This document shows positions 2,643-52,549 of a stretch of 52,764 nucleotides of DNA, piece by piece. Location of the stretch: positions 1 through 52,764 of the IMG/VR virus record IMGVR_UViG_3300025133_007827. One strand, 5' to 3'. The notes under the pieces are model-generated. The model was given only the letters and a program-made list of their open reading frames with translations. It did not search any database and was not told the origin of the DNA. Within the stretch, counting starts at the first letter, position 1. The number at the start of each line of letters is the position of its first letter. Position numbers and translations under genes: made by a program. The DNA is from a virus (Duplodnaviria > Caudoviricetes).

Positions 2643-2927
2643 CTAGTTATAAATTACGGATGAATCAAACTCATCCAACACTCTAAAGGTCATTATAAAA
2701 TTTTTATCCTTTCCATCATCCCACTGTTCAAATTCTTCCAAAACACAATTTCCTCTTCCTGTCATTCTATCCATCACACTGTCCATTTGATCATCTGTTC
2801 GGCAGATGATACGAACACATCCGGGCTGAGCATTCACTAGCACTAAATTGTCAGGTTCATTGAGAATTTCGTCTTTCTTAAAAATGCTTGCTAACACTCT
2901 CAAGATGCTGGGAATTATTTTTCCCAT
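2643..2927 (-). CDS. hypothetical protein
   Basis: ORF track 2643..2945; start moved to MGKIIPS. Confidence 0.6.
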   Translation of the reverse strand: MGKIIPSILRVLASIFKKDEILNEPDNLVLVNAQPGCVRIICRTDDQMDSVMDRMTGRGNCVLEEFEQWDDGKDKNFIMTFRVLDEFDSSVIYN

Positions 2928-3313
2928 GGATATCTTATCCAACAATCGTCATTACTAGCATAATAAAAATCAGGCCCAAAGGCACTCTTATCATCATAAT
3001 GCAACGTATAAAACAAAGACTTTTCCACAGTGTCAGATATTCCAGTCAACGTTTCACCGGTATCGGATATATCGTCCACTACCAGGAGATTTTTTCGCTT
3101 ACCATCATATAACCCTAACGATGAAATCAGTGGCAAATCCAAAGCATGTGATAGAGCTACACCCAAGATGAGACCTCCTCTCGGAACCCCATAGATGGCA
3201 TCAATGTGAATATAATCAATAGCTTCTTTCGCAGCTATGGCCATCTCTTCAACGGCTTCATCAAATTCTTCCCATGTGAAGTTTAAAATCTCTTTTCCTG
3301 GATTAACGTGCAT
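2915..3313 (-). CDS. type I purine phosphoribosyltransferase (Gpt-like)
   Basis: GVPRGG loop, PRPP-binding motif LVVDDISDTGETL, C-terminal WIRYPWE. Confidence 0.88.
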   Translation of the reverse strand: MHVNPGKEILNFTWEEFDEAVEEMAIAAKEAIDYIHIDAIYGVPRGGLILGVALSHALDLPLISSLGLYDGKRKNLLVVDDISDTGETLTGISDTVEKSLFYTLHYDDKSAFGPDFYYASNDDCWIRYPWEK

Positions 3314-46984: not shown

Positions 46985-47700
46985 CAATCTGTATCCTGTA
47001 GCGCTGTCAGATAATACTCGCTAAAGTAGTCTCCTGAATCAAACACTATATGCGCTAAGCCTTTATCTGAAATTCTCAGTTTGGCTGATTGGCATTCTCT
47101 GTTTGCTGCGAGGATCTCTTTAAAGAAATTAGCATTAAAGGTTTGATTTTTCGATAAAAAGGTTTCATTGGATTTCACCGGAATGGTAACTGTATGTGAA
47201 TTTGTCTTAGAGTGTCCAATCACAATTTTAGTCGATCCATTATATATAACCGTGAAAGTCTCGACATCTGATAATGCTGACTTACCCCTGATGAAAGTAT
47301 TGATAAAGTTGCTGTCTACGTCGATTTCCGTTTCAAATTCTGGAAGGCTTTTTAGATCTGGTGGAGTGAGGAATACACTTAGATCTGCTAGCGCATAACT
47401 CACTTCAGAGTACCCACCAGTGATCTTTAACGCAATTGGTTTTTCATCTATCATGAGTATATTCATATCAAGGTTTCCGTCCATAACACTGAGCAGTCTG
47501 GACAGTAAATTAGTTGAATAAACCCCCAACACAGTATCCTGAAATTGTACGTTCTTCACGAGTACCTTTCCAAGTAAAGCCTTATCTGGTGTCATGAATG
47601 ATGTGTAGAGCTTGTCATCCTTGAAGACCCACTTCACAGAATCGACGGTTCCACCAAGACTGTATTTGAGTATAAAGCGTTCTAATTTAGTCTTATTCAT
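46984..47700 (-). CDS. DNA sliding clamp (T4 gp45-like)
   Basis: 238 aa, two alpha/beta repeats, C-terminal ISDKGL.HI.F......YYL; immediately upstream of the clamp loader. Confidence 0.75.
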   Translation of the reverse strand: MNKTKLERFILKYSLGGTVDSVKWVFKDDKLYTSFMTPDKALLGKVLVKNVQFQDTVLGVYSTNLLSRLLSVMDGNLDMNILMIDEKPIALKITGGYSEVSYALADLSVFLTPPDLKSLPEFETEIDVDSNFINTFIRGKSALSDVETFTVIYNGSTKIVIGHSKTNSHTVTIPVKSNETFLSKNQTFNANFFKEILAANRECQSAKLRISDKGLAHIVFDSGDYFSEYYLTALQDTD

Positions 47701-48187
47701 GCCACATGTCTCCCTCTTCGACATTATAACCACCGGCATACACTCCGGCACTATCACTACTTGCCAATATGAATTGAGCTACCCTAGAATCTCGTTCTAT
47801 CTTAGTCTTACCGATCAAATTATACAAAATCCCACAAACGTGTCCTTTAAAGCCAGAATCATACAGGCCACTCAATACAAATACCCCATTCCGATTCAGT
47901 GTTGATCTCGTCACCAACCATCCAACTACCCCTTCGGGAACTTCCACATAAGCCGGAGAAGTAAAATCATATGCACAATTAGGATCTAATGTCCACAAAC
48001 CACCCTCAGTTTGCATTTCTTTAACTCCTCTGTGGGTCTTCCCATTCCTGTATAAGGTGAATTCTCGATTCTGATTGATTTGTGACAACCCATCAGCTGC
48101 AATGTCTACAGCATTTGGTTGTACATCTTCTTCCGGAATTCCTCTGAGCCATCCTTCCTCTAGAGCTTGTTTTGGATTTATAAACAT
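47693..48187 (-). CDS. dCTP deaminase / trimeric dUTPase family protein
   Basis: QPNAVD, TRSTLNRNG, LYDSGFKG, RVAQ. Confidence 0.85.
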   Translation of the reverse strand: MFINPKQALEEGWLRGIPEEDVQPNAVDIAADGLSQINQNREFTLYRNGKTHRGVKEMQTEGGLWTLDPNCAYDFTSPAYVEVPEGVVGWLVTRSTLNRNGVFVLSGLYDSGFKGHVCGILYNLIGKTKIERDSRVAQFILASSDSAGVYAGGYNVEEGDMWHE

Positions 48188-49077
48188 TATCTGAGTCCTC
48201 CCTCAATCCCTTTATAGATTACTGAAATTGCATCGTGCTTGTGTAACGATTCATGATGTGCACATACGACCGAAAAGTCTAATACTCGATCATCACCGTC
48301 TAAAGCATCATATGCTATCCTGGCGGCATCTTCACAGAACAGTAGGTTCGAGCCATTCAATCGAGCAAATTCTGCTTCATCCTCACGTTTACACATGACG
48401 AGTACCTCTGTCGGTATAGCAGCTCTCATCATCTCAACTAAATCTTCAATCAGTAAAACGTTAGTGGGATCTAATTCCACAGTGACGGTTGCTGTACTGC
48501 GTTGACTGTGAGAAACAACCGGTTCACCGGTTTGTTCTGTCACATACTGCCCCATCTCATAAGAACACGGACAGGCACTGGAATACACATAATCGACTGT
48601 CAAGTATATTTTAACCTGATCATCGTCACCCATACGTCCTTCTAAGACTGAAGAGTAATATTGCCACCCCTCGAGATTTGACCTCAGGGACATTTGCGTC
48701 ATTGGGTAATCAAACCTAAACTTCACATACGACTCTTTAGAATCTAGTTTATCCTTGTAGTCTTTCAAAACATCTTGTAAGAGACTAACACTCAGACTCC
48801 CGTCTATGTGATCATATAGCGTTCTAACTAACCGCGACATGTTGATGCCCTTAGTCTCACTCGTCAGAGACACATATGCAGAAACATTAGTCTTCAGCTT
48901 GATGGGATCCCCACTCCTAGCTCGATATCGAATTGGGATCTCAACTCCCTTCACTCCCACTTTCTGTATGTTAGTTTCTGCTCCCCTAGCACTCAAATAA
49001 TTCTGAACGTCTGGAAGGTTGTCCCAATCTACATTGGTAGGTAGATCAGATTGATGTACTGCGTTTTTATTATTCAT
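48187..49077 (-). CDS. folE2: GTP cyclohydrolase IB (FolE2/MptA)
   Basis: LPDVQ, KVGV, KGINMSRL, SACPCS, HSQRS, KREDE, FCEDAAR, ESLHKHDA; start moved to MNNKN. Confidence 0.93.
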   Translation of the reverse strand: MNNKNAVHQSDLPTNVDWDNLPDVQNYLSARGAETNIQKVGVKGVEIPIRYRARSGDPIKLKTNVSAYVSLTSETKGINMSRLVRTLYDHIDGSLSVSLLQDVLKDYKDKLDSKESYVKFRFDYPMTQMSLRSNLEGWQYYSSVLEGRMGDDDQVKIYLTVDYVYSSACPCSYEMGQYVTEQTGEPVVSHSQRSTATVTVELDPTNVLLIEDLVEMMRAAIPTEVLVMCKREDEAEFARLNGSNLLFCEDAARIAYDALDGDDRVLDFSVVCAHHESLHKHDAISVIYKGIEGGLR

Positions 49078-49081
49078 AGGG

Positions 49082-49906
49082 CTATTCTCCATTATTAATT
49101 GTTGTCCATGCTGCAAAGTTATGGTCGACTGACTTGAGCTCATCGTCCGTCAGGACCTTATTAAAATCTAATTTTTCCATTACGATCTCATCCACATAAC
49201 CATCATGGATCTCATTTCCGGTATACCCATACACGAAAGGCATCGATGTGTCATTTGATCTGATAAATTTATAGTCCTGATCGTAATAGTATTGTAATTC
49301 ATTTACTCCTACATTATCTGAACCCAACAGATGCATCTGTTTTCCAAATACGTCAGGAGTCATCTTGTGCTCATGAAGAAAGTCTATACATTTTATTCTA
49401 CCTCTGCTGCAGTTACCTTCCTCATAATGGTTCCCAACAAAACTTTCCGGGACTGCAAGTTTGGAAAAGCCTATCACGTCAATATCTTCTAACCGCACTA
49501 ATCTTTCATAACAACCTAACCACTCATCTTCTGTTCTACCTTGTGGGATAGCCATGAACCATGTTGAGTCATATCTGTATGGATCCTTCTTCTGTACGTA
49601 TTTCATGAAATCCTTAACTGATGCTACTGTGTCCGGACCATTAAACAGAATGTCGATCGCACATATCTCATCTGGTTCTACCAGCTTGGCTGCATCCAGC
49701 ACAAGGTCCTGTGGTACTCCTCTACCCTCTTCTTCAAACTCAAATGCTGAGTTGTCCATGATTAAGTATTTCTTGGACTTCCTATAAAAGTCCGCATATT
49801 GTTTATCTTTGTGTATCATATGAGCCAGACAAAGATGTCTATCCCCTAGATTGGCATGGCTCTCCAAATGTGGAGTGCTAGTTATCATACAGATGTCAAT
49901 GTTCAA
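49082..49906 (-). CDS. divergent TGT/DpdA-fold protein (putative deazaguanine transglycosylase or deoxyribosyltransferase)
   Basis: TGT-like motifs in the expected order: MDNSAFE, AID, IPQG, MHLLG, SNDTSMP; TTG start with AAGGAGG; embedded in the Que cluster. Confidence 0.65.
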   Translation of the reverse strand: MNIDICMITSTPHLESHANLGDRHLCLAHMIHKDKQYADFYRKSKKYLIMDNSAFEFEEEGRGVPQDLVLDAAKLVEPDEICAIDILFNGPDTVASVKDFMKYVQKKDPYRYDSTWFMAIPQGRTEDEWLGCYERLVRLEDIDVIGFSKLAVPESFVGNHYEEGNCSRGRIKCIDFLHEHKMTPDVFGKQMHLLGSDNVGVNELQYYYDQDYKFIRSNDTSMPFVYGYTGNEIHDGYVDEIVMEKLDFNKVLTDDELKSVDHNFAAWTTINNGE

Positions 49907-50255
49907 TGATTCCTCCTTGTATATCGTCTTCGAAGACAGAAACCTTCCAGTCTCTATATTCACCATATTTCTCGTTAAGTTGTTTAAGTATAGTCTCTGC
50001 TATCATCTCACAGCTAGATGGACCGAATCGCTTTATCCATTTCCCGGGCCACGAATTATGTATTATCTTCATCAACTCTACTCGTAGCATGATGAATTCT
50101 ATTTCTCTATCATGATGTTCGACTCCACACTCAACGTAAAAATGAAAGTCATGATGATGCTCATGTTTAAGAAATCCCACTTCTGGGAAATGTTTGTCTG
50201 CGTCAGGCCAATTATGAGTTCCCAGGACCGTATGTTTTACTTTGATTCTTGCCAT
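49896..50255 (-). CDS. QueD-like T-fold protein, DpdL-like (putative CDG decarboxylase)
   Basis: GxHxW, LKHEHHHDF (near LxxxHRHxF), H.DREIEFI, SCEMIA, VSVFED. Confidence 0.65.
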   Translation of the reverse strand: MARIKVKHTVLGTHNWPDADKHFPEVGFLKHEHHHDFHFYVECGVEHHDREIEFIMLRVELMKIIHNSWPGKWIKRFGPSSCEMIAETILKQLNEKYGEYRDWKVSVFEDDIQGGIIEH

Positions 50256-50833
50256 TCCATTATAACCTCTATTTGATCATACAAATTTTTTAGTGATTTG
50301 CTATTATCAAGTATTGTATCACATTTTTCTTTAGCGGTGGAGTTTACAAAATCCTCAGAGATGTGTTTACTCTGTTCTTCTGTTAATCCTGTTCTACCTT
50401 CAATATAAGCCACATCGCCGCCATTATTCTTGATCCAATCAAATTCAATCTCAAATCTCACATCAGATACAACTATCTTAGGATTATGTTCGGACTTTAA
50501 TTTTAGATTTTCTACCTTTGCTCTTATTGATCTCTCGAGCCAATATGTGTCCGCAATTCTATATCTCATATCCATACCATACAGCTGTAAAAATCTTCTA
50601 ATGGAAAATTTTCCATGATTTACTATCTTAGCGTCCTGCATATCCCATAACGACAGTTCTTTGTTTTTAATAGTTTCAAGGGTCTTCAAATCCATATCAA
50701 GATACTTACATAAATCGACTTTCATGGCGTCAGCTGCTGCAACTCTATGATAACCATAGTTATCAACTAAATAATCAGCTACAGTGTCTTTACCTGAACC
50801 GCCTTTGCCACACATACCAATTATTTTCATCAC
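50237..50833 (-). CDS. deoxynucleoside monophosphate kinase (T4 gp1-like)
   Basis: G..GSGKDT, AD.MK, R.FLQ.YG, VSDVRF..E, H.SE. Confidence 0.9.
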   Translation of the reverse strand: MMKIIGMCGKGGSGKDTVADYLVDNYGYHRVAAADAMKVDLCKYLDMDLKTLETIKNKELSLWDMQDAKIVNHGKFSIRRFLQLYGMDMRYRIADTYWLERSIRAKVENLKLKSEHNPKIVVSDVRFEIEFDWIKNNGGDVAYIEGRTGLTEEQSKHISEDFVNSTAKEKCDTILDNSKSLKNLYDQIEVIMEWQESK

Positions 50834-51588
50834 ACCTCCCTATCTGTATCGAATGCTATAATATGGTCTCTGCCTGTCATCCTGTACCCACGCTCAGCAC
50901 AGAGTTCAAATACCTTTGGATACATCTTTATCAGAGTCTCTCTGGTGTCTCCTGCCGGCATTATATATGTTTTGCTTTTCAGTATACCCAATTTGAGTCT
51001 AAATGCTTCTATCTCGTTGATGTTTTCTTCTGTTCCATCCCATACAGGTTTAAAATGATAATCTGAGTGGTATAATAAAAGTTTTTCAATAGTATCTAAA
51101 TTCAACCGGTATCTGTTATGCGTGTCAACAAATTTTTGGTCCACGACCTTACCTTTTGGTGTAACGGCTCCAATCACTGGAACTGAATTGCTGAACTTGG
51201 GGCTCAGACTGATCAGATCAATTGGTATATCTGTTTTGATCGCATGTGAACCTTCCGTTTCCATTGTGACAAAAATACCACGCTCATGAGCAAACCACAT
51301 CAGATCATTTACTAACTCTGGATGCATGCTTGGTGATCCACCTGTGAGCATCATTTCTTTGATGTGTGGATTATCATCATATATCTTATGAACGTCTCCC
51401 CGTATATAGCGCCCCTTCTCAGGATGGATACTGGTATACCAGCTATCACACCAACCACCTTCTCCAAAATAACATCTATGTGTACATCCTGTTGTTCTTA
51501 CTGCGATGGTTGGTATACCAAATCTGCTACCTTCTGATTGTACACATCTGTACAATTCTAGTATTGGAAGTATTTTATTTCCTGTCAC
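50830..51588 (-). CDS. queE: 7-carboxy-7-deazaguanine synthase (radical SAM)
   Basis: ELY.CVQSEG...G.P...VRTTGC, CTHRCYFGEGGWCD, TGG.P, METEG, SLSPK. Confidence 0.9.
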   Translation of the reverse strand: MTGNKILPILELYRCVQSEGSRFGIPTIAVRTTGCTHRCYFGEGGWCDSWYTSIHPEKGRYIRGDVHKIYDDNPHIKEMMLTGGSPSMHPELVNDLMWFAHERGIFVTMETEGSHAIKTDIPIDLISLSPKFSNSVPVIGAVTPKGKVVDQKFVDTHNRYRLNLDTIEKLLLYHSDYHFKPVWDGTEENINEIEAFRLKLGILKSKTYIMPAGDTRETLIKMYPKVFELCAERGYRMTGRDHIIAFDTDREV

Positions 51589-52097
51589 TATGCACCCTCA
51601 AATAAGTCTTCGTTCCATTCTCTATGTCCTTGACGATACGCCATATTGGTTTGAGTTTCACGTACTTCTACTCTAAAACACCAAAGTCTTTCTGCTTCTC
51701 CTGGTCCCCATCCATCCGGAATGAATACTCCATTTATATACTTGTATAATTGATCGGCTATGGCTTCACATCCAAGGTTTGGTAATATAGTAAGTCTTGC
51801 TAATCCTTGCTTTTCTAATTCTTTATATCGATCCATTTCTGGTTCATCTTCAGCTACTAATAATGTATGATCGAATTGCTCATCAAGAAGTTGTTTAAGT
51901 TCTCTGAGTCCACCATAATCGGCAACCCAATTCCTAACATCTAAATGATCTGTACCAAAATAGAATTTAAAGCTAAAACTATATCCATGGATTACATTAC
52001 AATGACTATCTGCTCTCCATTGTCTATATGCGACTGGAAACTTATCTACATATTCTTTTGTACTAACATATTTGTATGATACTGGTGTTGTATTCAT
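51588..52097 (-). CDS. queD: 6-carboxytetrahydropterin synthase (QueD/PTPS), paralog 2
   Basis: RQWRADSHC..IHGY, WVADYG, FDHTLLV, GCE, VRET. Confidence 0.88.
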   Translation of the reverse strand: MNTTPVSYKYVSTKEYVDKFPVAYRQWRADSHCNVIHGYSFSFKFYFGTDHLDVRNWVADYGGLRELKQLLDEQFDHTLLVAEDEPEMDRYKELEKQGLARLTILPNLGCEAIADQLYKYINGVFIPDGWGPGEAERLWCFRVEVRETQTNMAYRQGHREWNEDLFEGA

Positions 52098-52549
52098 TTT
52101 TGACTCCCTAAATAATATTCAGCCATATTATCGTTGTGTTCCCAAACCTGACATTTATGTATCCTCACTCGACCATCAGTTTCTGCTTGTATTACCTCAT
52201 CAAGTTGGTTTGCTATCAATTCTGCAAACTTCTCGCAACCGACACCACCTTCAAGTATCCTTAGATCAATTATACCACGATTGTGCATTTTCTTAAACAG
52301 TGAAAGTTCCGGATCATCGGATGATACACATGTTGTGTGATCAAACATATCCTTCAACCACTTTTTCACTCCATTACGTTTGAAACATCCAAAATCAATG
52401 ACCCATCCTTTATCATCTAATTCTCCTTCAAACCAAACCTTAAATGCAAATGCATACCCGTGCATCTTACTACAGTGTGAATCAGCCTTCCATTGACGGA
52501 ATGCCGTACTGTATCCTATAAATCGTTTATAACTTCTATACTTTCCCAT
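52094..52549 (-). CDS. queD: 6-carboxytetrahydropterin synthase (QueD/PTPS), paralog 1
   Basis: RQWKADSHC..MHGY, WVIDFG, FDHT, GCEKFA, WEH..N. Confidence 0.9.
   Translation of the reverse strand: MGKYRSYKRFIGYSTAFRQWKADSHCSKMHGYAFAFKVWFEGELDDKGWVIDFGCFKRNGVKKWLKDMFDHTTCVSSDDPELSLFKKMHNRGIIDLRILEGGVGCEKFAELIANQLDEVIQAETDGRVRIHKCQVWEHNDNMAEYYLGSQK

Follow-up and report, generated by a model that had tools for sequence, protein, structure and literature searches.

A DpdA3-family transglycosylase gene in a predicted phage 7-deazaguanine operon and its linkage to genes of nucleotide metabolism

The DNA analyzed here, below called the window, is a 52.8-kb IMG/VR virus record (IMGVR_UViG_3300025133_007827, Caudoviricetes) estimated to be 30% complete, and every gene examined in it is on the minus strand. 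The gene in question occupies positions 49082-49906 of the window and encodes a 274-amino-acid (aa) protein with the tRNA-guanine transglycosylase (TGT) fold; it is very probably a DpdA3 transglycosylase gene inside a 7-deazaguanine cassette. A protein of this length had been described in a first-pass annotation, which gave no strand. The open reading frame (ORF) is real and lies on the minus strand, where it begins to be open at 49966 and ends with the stop at 49082; the plus-strand translation of 49082-49906 contains many stops. The start codon is a TTG at 49906, which was accepted because 273-aa metagenomic homologues begin at the aligned residue. A Shine-Dalgarno-like AAGGAGGA (49911-49918, minus strand), read directly from the sequence, stands 4 nt ahead of this codon, and the 5' end of the ORF and the stop of the upstream ORF share 11 nt.

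The protein carries, in TGT order, the motifs D51-N-S-A-F55, A83-I-D85, P121-Q-G123, H192-L-L-G195 and S217-N-D219-T-S-M-P223, and every motif listed in the first-pass annotation was thus found in place. Among 90 family members G195 and D219 are invariant, and conservation is 90% or higher for D51, N52, D85, Q122, H192 and L194. No cysteine occurs in the 55 residues C-terminal of D219 in the window protein, and a regular-expression test for the zinc motif CxCxxC...H, which is present in E. coli Tgt, was negative for all 90 family members. The earlier statement that a C-terminal zinc site is missing is therefore correct for this protein, but the feature is not unique to it, since the test was likewise negative for DpdA1 of phage 9g.

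An AlphaFold2 model built on the 90-sequence family alignment is a single bare (beta/alpha)8 TIM barrel (predicted local distance difference test score 97.1, predicted template modeling score 0.93). As the model shows one barrel with nothing added to it, there is no PUA domain, in line with the first-pass annotation. The structural check proposed there recovered the TGT/DpdA fold: all Foldseek matches listed (ranks 1-50) were tRNA-guanine transglycosylases with E values of about 1e-7, and the top structure matches from Foldseek and VIA were TGT and the DNA preQ0 insertase DpdA. In a 106-sequence MAFFT alignment D51, Q122, R170, G195 and D219 align with D89, Q187, R226, G245 and D264 of E. coli Tgt, of which D89 and D264 are the two catalytic aspartates. 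As modeled, the window protein is a minimal TGT-fold barrel that keeps the predicted catalytic Asp pair D51/D219 and the base-binding Gln Q122.

Sequence searches were far less informative. Pfam gave nothing for the window protein at E<=0.01 and NCBIfam gave nothing; the Pfam TGT family PF01702 found no match in the window at E<=10, and all 14 control genomes matched it. A profile of the 90 relatives yielded only three weak and unrelated matches among PDB sequences (E 0.031-2.3). When the family profile was compared with single sequences by hhalign, the probabilities were as low as 2.5% for E. coli Tgt and 19.8% for 9g DpdA, which speaks against the assignment, with the expected motifs being aligned. 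Sequence methods alone do not reveal the TGT fold, and it is the modeled structure that settles the TGT assignment.

DpdA3 was named in 2023 (Cui/Hutinet, NAR; PMC10516641) for CGPG_00065 of phage phiST and its Campylobacter-phage homologues. Judged by similarity, the window protein is a member of this already named family and not of a new one. It matches phrog_20335 (E 8.9e-26), the same PHROG as phiST DpdA3 (E 3.7e-189), with DpdA3 of CP220 and immuto falling into the sister phrog_19058 and 9g DpdA1 into phrog_887. BLASTP against phiST DpdA3 gave E 2e-28 at 30% identity, and the family profile recovers CP220 CPT_0056 at E 2.9e-46. A maximum-likelihood tree of 59 rows was made from 45 of the 90 alignment rows (every second one), 13 named sequences and the window protein. 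The seven DpdA1/2 controls form one clade that excludes the window protein, with a Shimodaira-Hasegawa-like approximate likelihood-ratio (SH-aLRT) support of 99, and the window protein lies within a 50-row group that also holds immuto and CP220 DpdA3 (support 81). PhiST branches at the base without a resolved position, and the branches leading to E. coli Tgt and phiFN37 are long. The phylogeny suggested by the first-pass annotation thus places the protein apart from canonical Tgt and from DpdA1/2, on the DpdA3 side of the tree; the distinct DpdA-like family postulated there is indeed distinct from both, but had already been described as DpdA3.

The family is large and homogeneous, with 1667 cluster representatives at E<=1e-3 among 1.84 billion proteins, well beyond what would be expected by chance. 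The family profile collects 1994 proteins at E<=1e-10, of which the best 120 are all 226-317 aa long, with no Pfam domain and no assigned name. A tblastn search of 50,697 phage records gave 14 records, and 12.8 kb of the window, compared with phages by megablast, had no match. In a search for DpdA3 fusions among proteins of 537-2000 aa nothing scored.

The DpdA3 gene belongs to a single minus-strand operon with the transcription order two QueD-like genes, QueE, a deoxynucleotide monophosphate (dNMP) kinase, a DpdL-like gene, DpdA3, FolE2 and a dUTPase-fold gene, all of whose coordinates below refer to the minus strand. Both QueD-like proteins of the PTPS type match PF01242 and phrog_2389: copy 1 (51588-52097, 169 aa) with E 8.2e-15 and 6.2e-37, and copy 2 (52094-52549, 151 aa) with E 2.5e-18 and 3e-36, respectively. 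The QueE-like radical SAM enzyme, a predicted synthase of 7-carboxy-7-deazaguanine (CDG) (50830-51588, 252 aa), matches phrog_2076 (E 9.5e-46) and, weakly and below the cut-off, Pfam Radical_SAM (E 0.0015). The kinase is of the T4 gp1 type (50237-50833, 198 aa; PF21448 DNMK, E 1.2e-21, above the cut-off; phrog_139, E 2.9e-42). Between it and DpdA3 lies the gene of a 119-aa DpdL-like T-fold protein, a proposed CDG decarboxylase (49896-50255), which has no Pfam match and belongs to phrog_17812 (E 4e-18) together with phiST DpdL, CGPG_00067 (BLASTP E 8e-15, 37% identity). Its motif L-K-H-E-H-H-H-D-F (L-x3-H-H-H-x-F) is one residue off the published DpdL motif LxxxHRHxF, which replaces CxxxHGH of QueD (PMC10516641). 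On the other side of DpdA3 are FolE2, a GTP cyclohydrolase of type IB (48187-49143, 318 aa as listed; PF02649, E 3.4e-69, match from residue 43), and the dUTPase/dCTP-deaminase-fold, or DCD-like, protein (47693-48187, 164 aa; PF22769, E 5.2e-13).

Three further observations concern these genes. Both tandem QueD-like genes read C-x3-H-G-Y, as against the published QueD signature CxxxHGH. Among related loci, two QueD-like copies were seen in locus L010 only; the two proteins may assemble into a hetero-oligomer, or one of them may have acquired another role. As listed, FolE2 starts at an ATG inside DpdA3, 62 nt of whose 3' end it thereby shares, and the true start may lie further in; if translation began at Met18 or Met23, the overlap would shrink to 11 nt or vanish.

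The operon was compared with a neighborhood set of 83 loci, consisting of the best 80 of 522 IMG/VR DpdA3 relatives with 8-kb flanks, the window, phiST and D479. ORFs were called and clustered, and clusters were named by Pfam; 54 loci with at least three ORFs on each side of DpdA3 make up the full-flank subset. Counted over the 83 loci, the most common partners are the dUTPase-fold gene (59), DpdL (53), FolE1 (52), QueE (50), QueD (42), DUF3310 (30) and QueC (23), followed by QueF (20), phosphoribosyltransferase (PRTase), DNMK kinase, formyltransferase and AAA_28 kinase-like genes (16 each), and FolE2 (12). DpdL occurs in 40/54 and QueC in 12/54 full-flank loci, and no locus row shows both. 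With a DpdL-like gene present and QueC not found in the window, the predicted base is 7-deazaguanine, as in phiST. The operon most likely predicts replacement of G by this base, with DpdL as a putative decarboxylase. A caveat attaches to QueC, which was not found at E<=1 in a window that holds about 30% of the genome, and which could lie elsewhere. The predicted role of the DpdA3 family would be a swap of guanine for 7-deazaguanine that lets phage DNA escape restriction.

A xanthine/guanine-type PRTase of 132 aa is encoded elsewhere in the window (2915-3313, minus strand; NCBIfam xanthine PRTase, E 1.8e-11, below the cut-off). By similarity it clusters with PRTases inside the DpdA3 cassettes of other loci. 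In the window it is an accessory gene, 46 kb from the cassette, and such a gene is inside the cassette in 10/54 full-flank loci (e.g. L020:5632-6111) and in immuto (gp211). The enzyme could salvage released guanine or activate the deazapurine base.

The dUTPase-fold gene is closely tied to DpdA3. It is found within six genes of DpdA3 in 42/54 full-flank loci, and in 59 relatives of the dUTPase-fold protein the superfamily motifs for phosphate binding and catalysis are kept. The best NCBIfam match is the archaeal-type dUTPase, at 68.8 bits and below the 130-bit cut-off. In the 50,697 phage records the subfamily was found at E<=1e-5 in four, and all four encode DpdA3. A reciprocal test started from the best 80 of 592 IMG/VR relatives of the dUTPase-fold protein, some of whose contigs are common to the DpdA3-centered set, and used a hidden Markov model of DpdA3. 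It gave a match in 67/80 loci and in 46/46 of those with at least 3 kb of upstream sequence, at a median gap of 317 bp. That the gene is a generic phage dUTPase was considered and rejected because its distribution is confined to DpdA3 carriers (4/4 phage records, 46/46 loci); the subfamily seemingly exists only beside DpdA3. Where it is absent, another fold of NTP phosphohydrolase is present: MazG in phiST, a PRA-PH/MazG-like protein in immuto and an HD domain in CP220. Within a fold associated with pyrimidines, the subfamily may be specific for a purine (dGTP), and we propose it as a dGTP pyrophosphatase.

A similar linkage was found for nucleotide kinases. A P-loop nucleotide-kinase-like gene (DNMK, AAA_28 or AAA_18-like) lies within three genes of DpdA3 in 27/54 full-flank loci and a DUF3310 gene in 20/54; no locus has both (0/54) and 47/54 have either. 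In Rhizobium phage RHph_I1_18 a DpdA3-like barrel is fused to a C-terminal DUF3310 domain (EVB91_073, 422 aa; L116:4932-6200, plus strand), and a dUTPase-fold gene follows it. Because DUF3310 genes and P-loop kinase genes exclude each other at the same position, and because of this fusion, DUF3310 may be regarded as an analogous kinase partner. The DpdA3-linked DUF3310 proteins match five PHROGs that are annotated as kinase or nucleotide kinase (best E 2.7e-8), and their clusters are labelled SaV-like in Atlas. When 30 of these proteins were combined into a profile, it aligned with residues 123-187 of T7 gp1.7 at 15.6 bits (E 1.6e-6, two-sequence search). T7 gp1.7 phosphorylates dTMP and dGMP (PMC11897194, citing Tran 2012). 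A kinase function of the stand-alone DUF3310 proteins is put forward as a lead and not as a result.

The arrangement recurs in named phages, in a comparison that leaves out MA9V-3. D479 and Ahp1 have DpdA3, a DNMK kinase and a dUTPase-fold gene, in this order; in Bakedbeans DpdA3 (profile E 4.4e-43) is followed by a DNMK-like gene, with the dUTPase-fold gene 5 kb further on. The order in phiST is MazG, DpdL, an AAA_18 protein and DpdA3, and in immuto PRTase, FolE, the PRA-PH/MazG-like gene and DpdA3, followed by formyltransferase, an AAA_28 'thymidylate kinase' and QueF. CP220 has a three-gene island among tail genes, made up of an HD + AAA_33 fusion (CPT_0055; L090:6543-7574, plus strand), DpdA3 and an AAA_28 protein. 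In BSTP12 and Youna2 the order is a P-loop protein, DpdA3 and DNA polymerase A. Homologues of the AAA_18-like phiST protein, CGPG_00066, lie directly upstream of DpdA3 in the metagenomic phages of loci L027, L030, L033 and L042, and in L027 (4666-5778, plus strand) the homologue is fused to FolE1 in a 370-aa protein. The 2023 paper reports no CGPG_00066 homologues in GenBank phages (PMC10516641).

Seven DpdA1/2 cassettes (9g, Iggy, BcepGomr, vB_EpM_ZHS, Dp-1, Bipper and phiFN37) served as controls, for which the annotation was used together with a Pfam scan of ten unannotated neighbors. None of the seven has a nucleotide kinase within 4 kb, the small hypothetical genes having been only partly scanned. 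Their partners are DnaN/polymerase or ParB-like proteins, and in the Dp-1 cassette a dUTPase lies 3.5 kb from DpdA.

On balance, and with some caution, we favor from this gene linkage a reading in which DpdA3 acts before replication on a free deoxynucleotide, in the simplest case dGMP, and swaps its base, over an exchange in DNA that has already been replicated. FolE2, the two QueD-like proteins, QueE and the DpdL-like protein would make the free 7-deazapurine base from GTP. The dUTPase-fold protein would hydrolyze dGTP to dGMP, also depleting the dGTP pool, and DpdA3 would convert dGMP and 7-deazaguanine into 7-deaza-dGMP and guanine. The product would then be phosphorylated by the adjacent T4 gp1-type dNMP kinase, and host nucleoside diphosphate kinase and the phage polymerase would complete the full replacement of G by deazaG before or during replication. 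In other lineages the kinase slot of this DpdA3 triad could be filled by T4 gp1-like, AAA_28, AAA_18 or T7 gp1.7-like proteins. That the neighboring dNMP kinase favors a nucleotide substrate had been supposed in the first-pass annotation from this one gene; the comparative linkage lends support to this idea, but the idea contradicts the published post-replicative proposal.

Nucleotide-level exchange would explain why the cassettes have a private NTPase, why the helpers are swapped by unrelated folds across lineages, and why DpdA3 is fused to DUF3310. It would also explain the absence of nucleotide kinase and NTPase partners from the cassettes of DNA-level DpdA proteins. Complete replacement of G has been reported for the DpdA3 phages phiST, immuto and CP220, as against at most 30% for other DpdAs (PMC10516641), and this restriction of 100% replacement to DpdA3 phages would follow as well. 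The same holds for two observations in that paper, namely that expression of DpdA3, or of DpdA3 with DpdL, gave no modification in E. coli, and that the free nucleoside dADG was reported, second-hand, in CP220-infected cells. A modified-dGTP route had been raised earlier for Campylobacter phages (PMC6884629), and the word 'kinase' is absent from PMC10516641. In the literature searched, which excluded subscription journals and supplements, neither an activity of DpdA3 nor a route to 7-deazaguanine at the nucleotide level was found to be reported.

According to the published model, DpdA3 would act on phage DNA after replication, flipping out G and inserting 7-deazaguanine, and the kinase and dUTPase-fold genes would be replication neighbors or end-repair helpers. 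We consider this rather doubtful, but several points speak for it and weigh against exchange on free nucleotides. It is the only published proposal and was made for all DpdA subfamilies (PMC10516641). The catalytic positions are common to DpdA3 and DpdA1/2. Clamp, clamp-loader or DNA polymerase genes are found near many DpdA3 genes: the polymerase gene directly follows DpdA3 in BSTP12 and Youna2, clamp and clamp-loader genes lie just outside the cassette in T4-like loci, and phage replication modules often hold genes of nucleotide metabolism. Some of the linked P-loop proteins, namely the HD-P-loop fusion of CP220 and the AAA_18 protein of phiST, resemble polynucleotide kinases and would fit DNA end repair. 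The domain order HD + AAA_33 of the CP220 fusion resembles that of HD-Pnk end-healing enzymes, so that its role is ambiguous.

The linkage itself also has weak points. Neither a kinase nor DUF3310 lies within three genes of DpdA3 in 7/54 full-flank loci, and 12/54 are without a dUTPase-fold gene within six genes. The stand-alone DUF3310 proteins span only about 65 C-terminal residues of gp1.7, and some kinase calls are weak (Bakedbeans gp192, E 8e-4; BSTP12 and Youna2, E 0.003-0.013). Clustering at 60% identity reduces the 83 loci to 15 groups, and as they are moreover the best 80 of 522 relatives the locus counts are not independent; among the 14 clusters with a full-flank member, a kinase is found in 8, DUF3310 in 5, either in 12 and the dUTPase-fold gene in 11. 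The isoelectric point does not discriminate as a test of DNA binding (window protein 4.8, family median 6.0, E. coli Tgt 6.0, 9g DpdA 5.6), and the net charge of DpdA3 does so no better. On the other hand, exchange in replicated DNA leaves unexplained the strict coupling to the dUTPase-fold gene (46/46 loci, 4/4 phage records), the swapping of four unrelated kinase types at one position and the DpdA3-DUF3310 fusion, and such genes are present in 0/7 of the cassettes of the DNA-level DpdA1/2 proteins. DpdA3 is without about 180 residues of bacterial DpdA (bDpdA), including a zinc-pinned insertion, and the bDpdA insertions have been placed on the DNA-binding face (PMC10164549). The lack of modification upon expression in E. 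coli also argues against exchange in replicated DNA (PMC10516641).

Two other readings keep the TGT fold and change the reaction or the substrate. The protein might carry out another reaction on free nucleotides, either as a dGMP N-glycosidase without base insertion, or as an exchanger on ribonucleotides, dG or dGTP, with the PRTase partly making the deazapurine nucleotide. The presence of a xanthine/guanine-type PRTase in 10/54 full-flank cassettes and once in the window would suit this, as would the HD domain beside DpdA3 and two kinase-like domains in CP220. HD enzymes can yield nucleosides. The second-hand report of free dADG in infected cells points the same way (PMC10516641). The idea is nevertheless improbable in our view, as DpdA3 is universal in the cassettes and the PRTase is present in a minority. 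Moreover, the two catalytic Asp positions are conserved together with the Gln by which exchange enzymes bind the base, and the kinases linked to DpdA3 in the clade of the window are of the dNMP type. A Tgt that acts on host or phage tRNA and increases its queuosine-type modification would be in keeping with the fold, and has been raised for phages without DpdA (PMC6884629), but can hardly be entertained here. There is no PF01702 match at E<=10, no zinc site and no tRNA-binding extension, the tree sets the protein apart from E. coli Tgt, and the characterized DpdA3 phages have fully modified DNA; the first-pass annotation was right to set a tRNA-modifying Tgt aside.

Compared with exchange in DNA or on tRNA, exchange on dGMP by DpdA3 remains the reading that we prefer, and the differences from known systems can be set out in relation to it. 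Like phiST DpdA3, the window protein is about 260-275 aa long, has no Pfam TGT match and stands in a cassette with FolE, QueD, QueE and DpdL. Unlike phiST, the window uses FolE2 instead of FolE1 and has two QueD-like genes, and the places held in phiST by AAA_18 and MazG are taken by a T4 gp1-type kinase and a dUTPase-fold gene; the DpdA3 of the window belongs to a separate metagenomic clade, in which the closest relatives show 54-95% identity. Bacterial DpdA of Salmonella Montevideo (PDB 7UI4) is 12% identical to the window protein, with 235 of its 413 residues aligned. It has four insertions, a zinc site CXCX2CX22H and the zinc-pinned Ins8, and the insertions are placed on the DNA-binding face (PMC10164549); it modifies less than 0.1% of G (PMC10516641). 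In contrast, the window protein is a bare 274-aa barrel with neither DpdA-specific insertions nor a zinc site.

With DpdA1/2 the window protein shares the fold and the D...D pair, and the stretches LDSGAFS and MDNSAFE as well as SxDSS and SNDTS align. DpdA1/2 are likewise encoded by phages and are accompanied by genes of the preQ0 pathway. However, they have His at the position of Gln122, unlike both DpdA3 and Tgt, and they differ further by forming a separate clade (SH-aLRT 99) with a different PHROG (phrog_887) and no nucleotide kinase in 7/7 cassettes. Compared with Tgt, the window protein is about 100 residues shorter and has neither a PF01702 match nor a zinc site, and its predicted substrate is not tRNA.

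A nucleotide-level replacement of a base has counterparts elsewhere. The dCTPase, dCMP hydroxymethylase and gp1 kinase of T4 reportedly form a pre-replicative triad for base replacement. In phages with Z-genomes, DatZ, MazZ and PurZ provide synthesis at the nucleotide level (PMC12783734, PMC8342488). The proposed combination of a dNTP hydrolase, a dNMP-altering enzyme and a kinase resembles these sets, and the kinase of the window is of the T4 gp1 family. Unlike in these sets, the dNMP would be altered by a TGT-fold enzyme that exchanges its base, a step which we infer and for which there is no nucleotide-level precedent.

Taken alone, the gene adds one more ordinary member to DpdA3, and the novelty lies in the comparative linkage of DpdA3 genes to nucleotide enzymes. 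The basis of the published post-replicative proposal is simply that a DpdA homologue is present, and tests of DpdA3 in a heterologous host have failed; as candidates for the missing components, the linkage points to a dUTPase-fold NTPase and a nucleotide kinase. If the proposal is true, DpdA3 would be the first TGT-fold enzyme to exchange the base of a free deoxynucleotide, a new reaction type in the TGT superfamily, and the dUTPase fold would gain a purine-specific member. It would also open an enzymatic route to 7-deaza-dGTP analogues and predict which defense systems see DpdA3 phages, by sensing of the nucleotide pool or of DNA. If confirmed, this operon-level inference would change the understanding of DpdA3.

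Some minor observations were made in the course of the survey. In 23 T4-like loci (e.g. L083:8049-9020, plus strand) the dUTPase-fold gene is followed by the gene of a conserved 323-aa protein that belongs to no Pfam family and whose sole matches are weak and glycosyltransferase-like. Two longer DpdA3 relatives, P0079 (465 aa) and P0101 (409 aa), contain insertions that are LAGLIDADG homing-endonuclease or intein-like. In Edwardsiella phage vB_EpM_ZHS a nucleoside 2-deoxyribosyltransferase (PF05014; L110:5718-6128, plus strand) is encoded about 1 kb downstream of DpdA, and might be a further enzyme that exchanges bases at the nucleoside level in such a deazaguanine setting.

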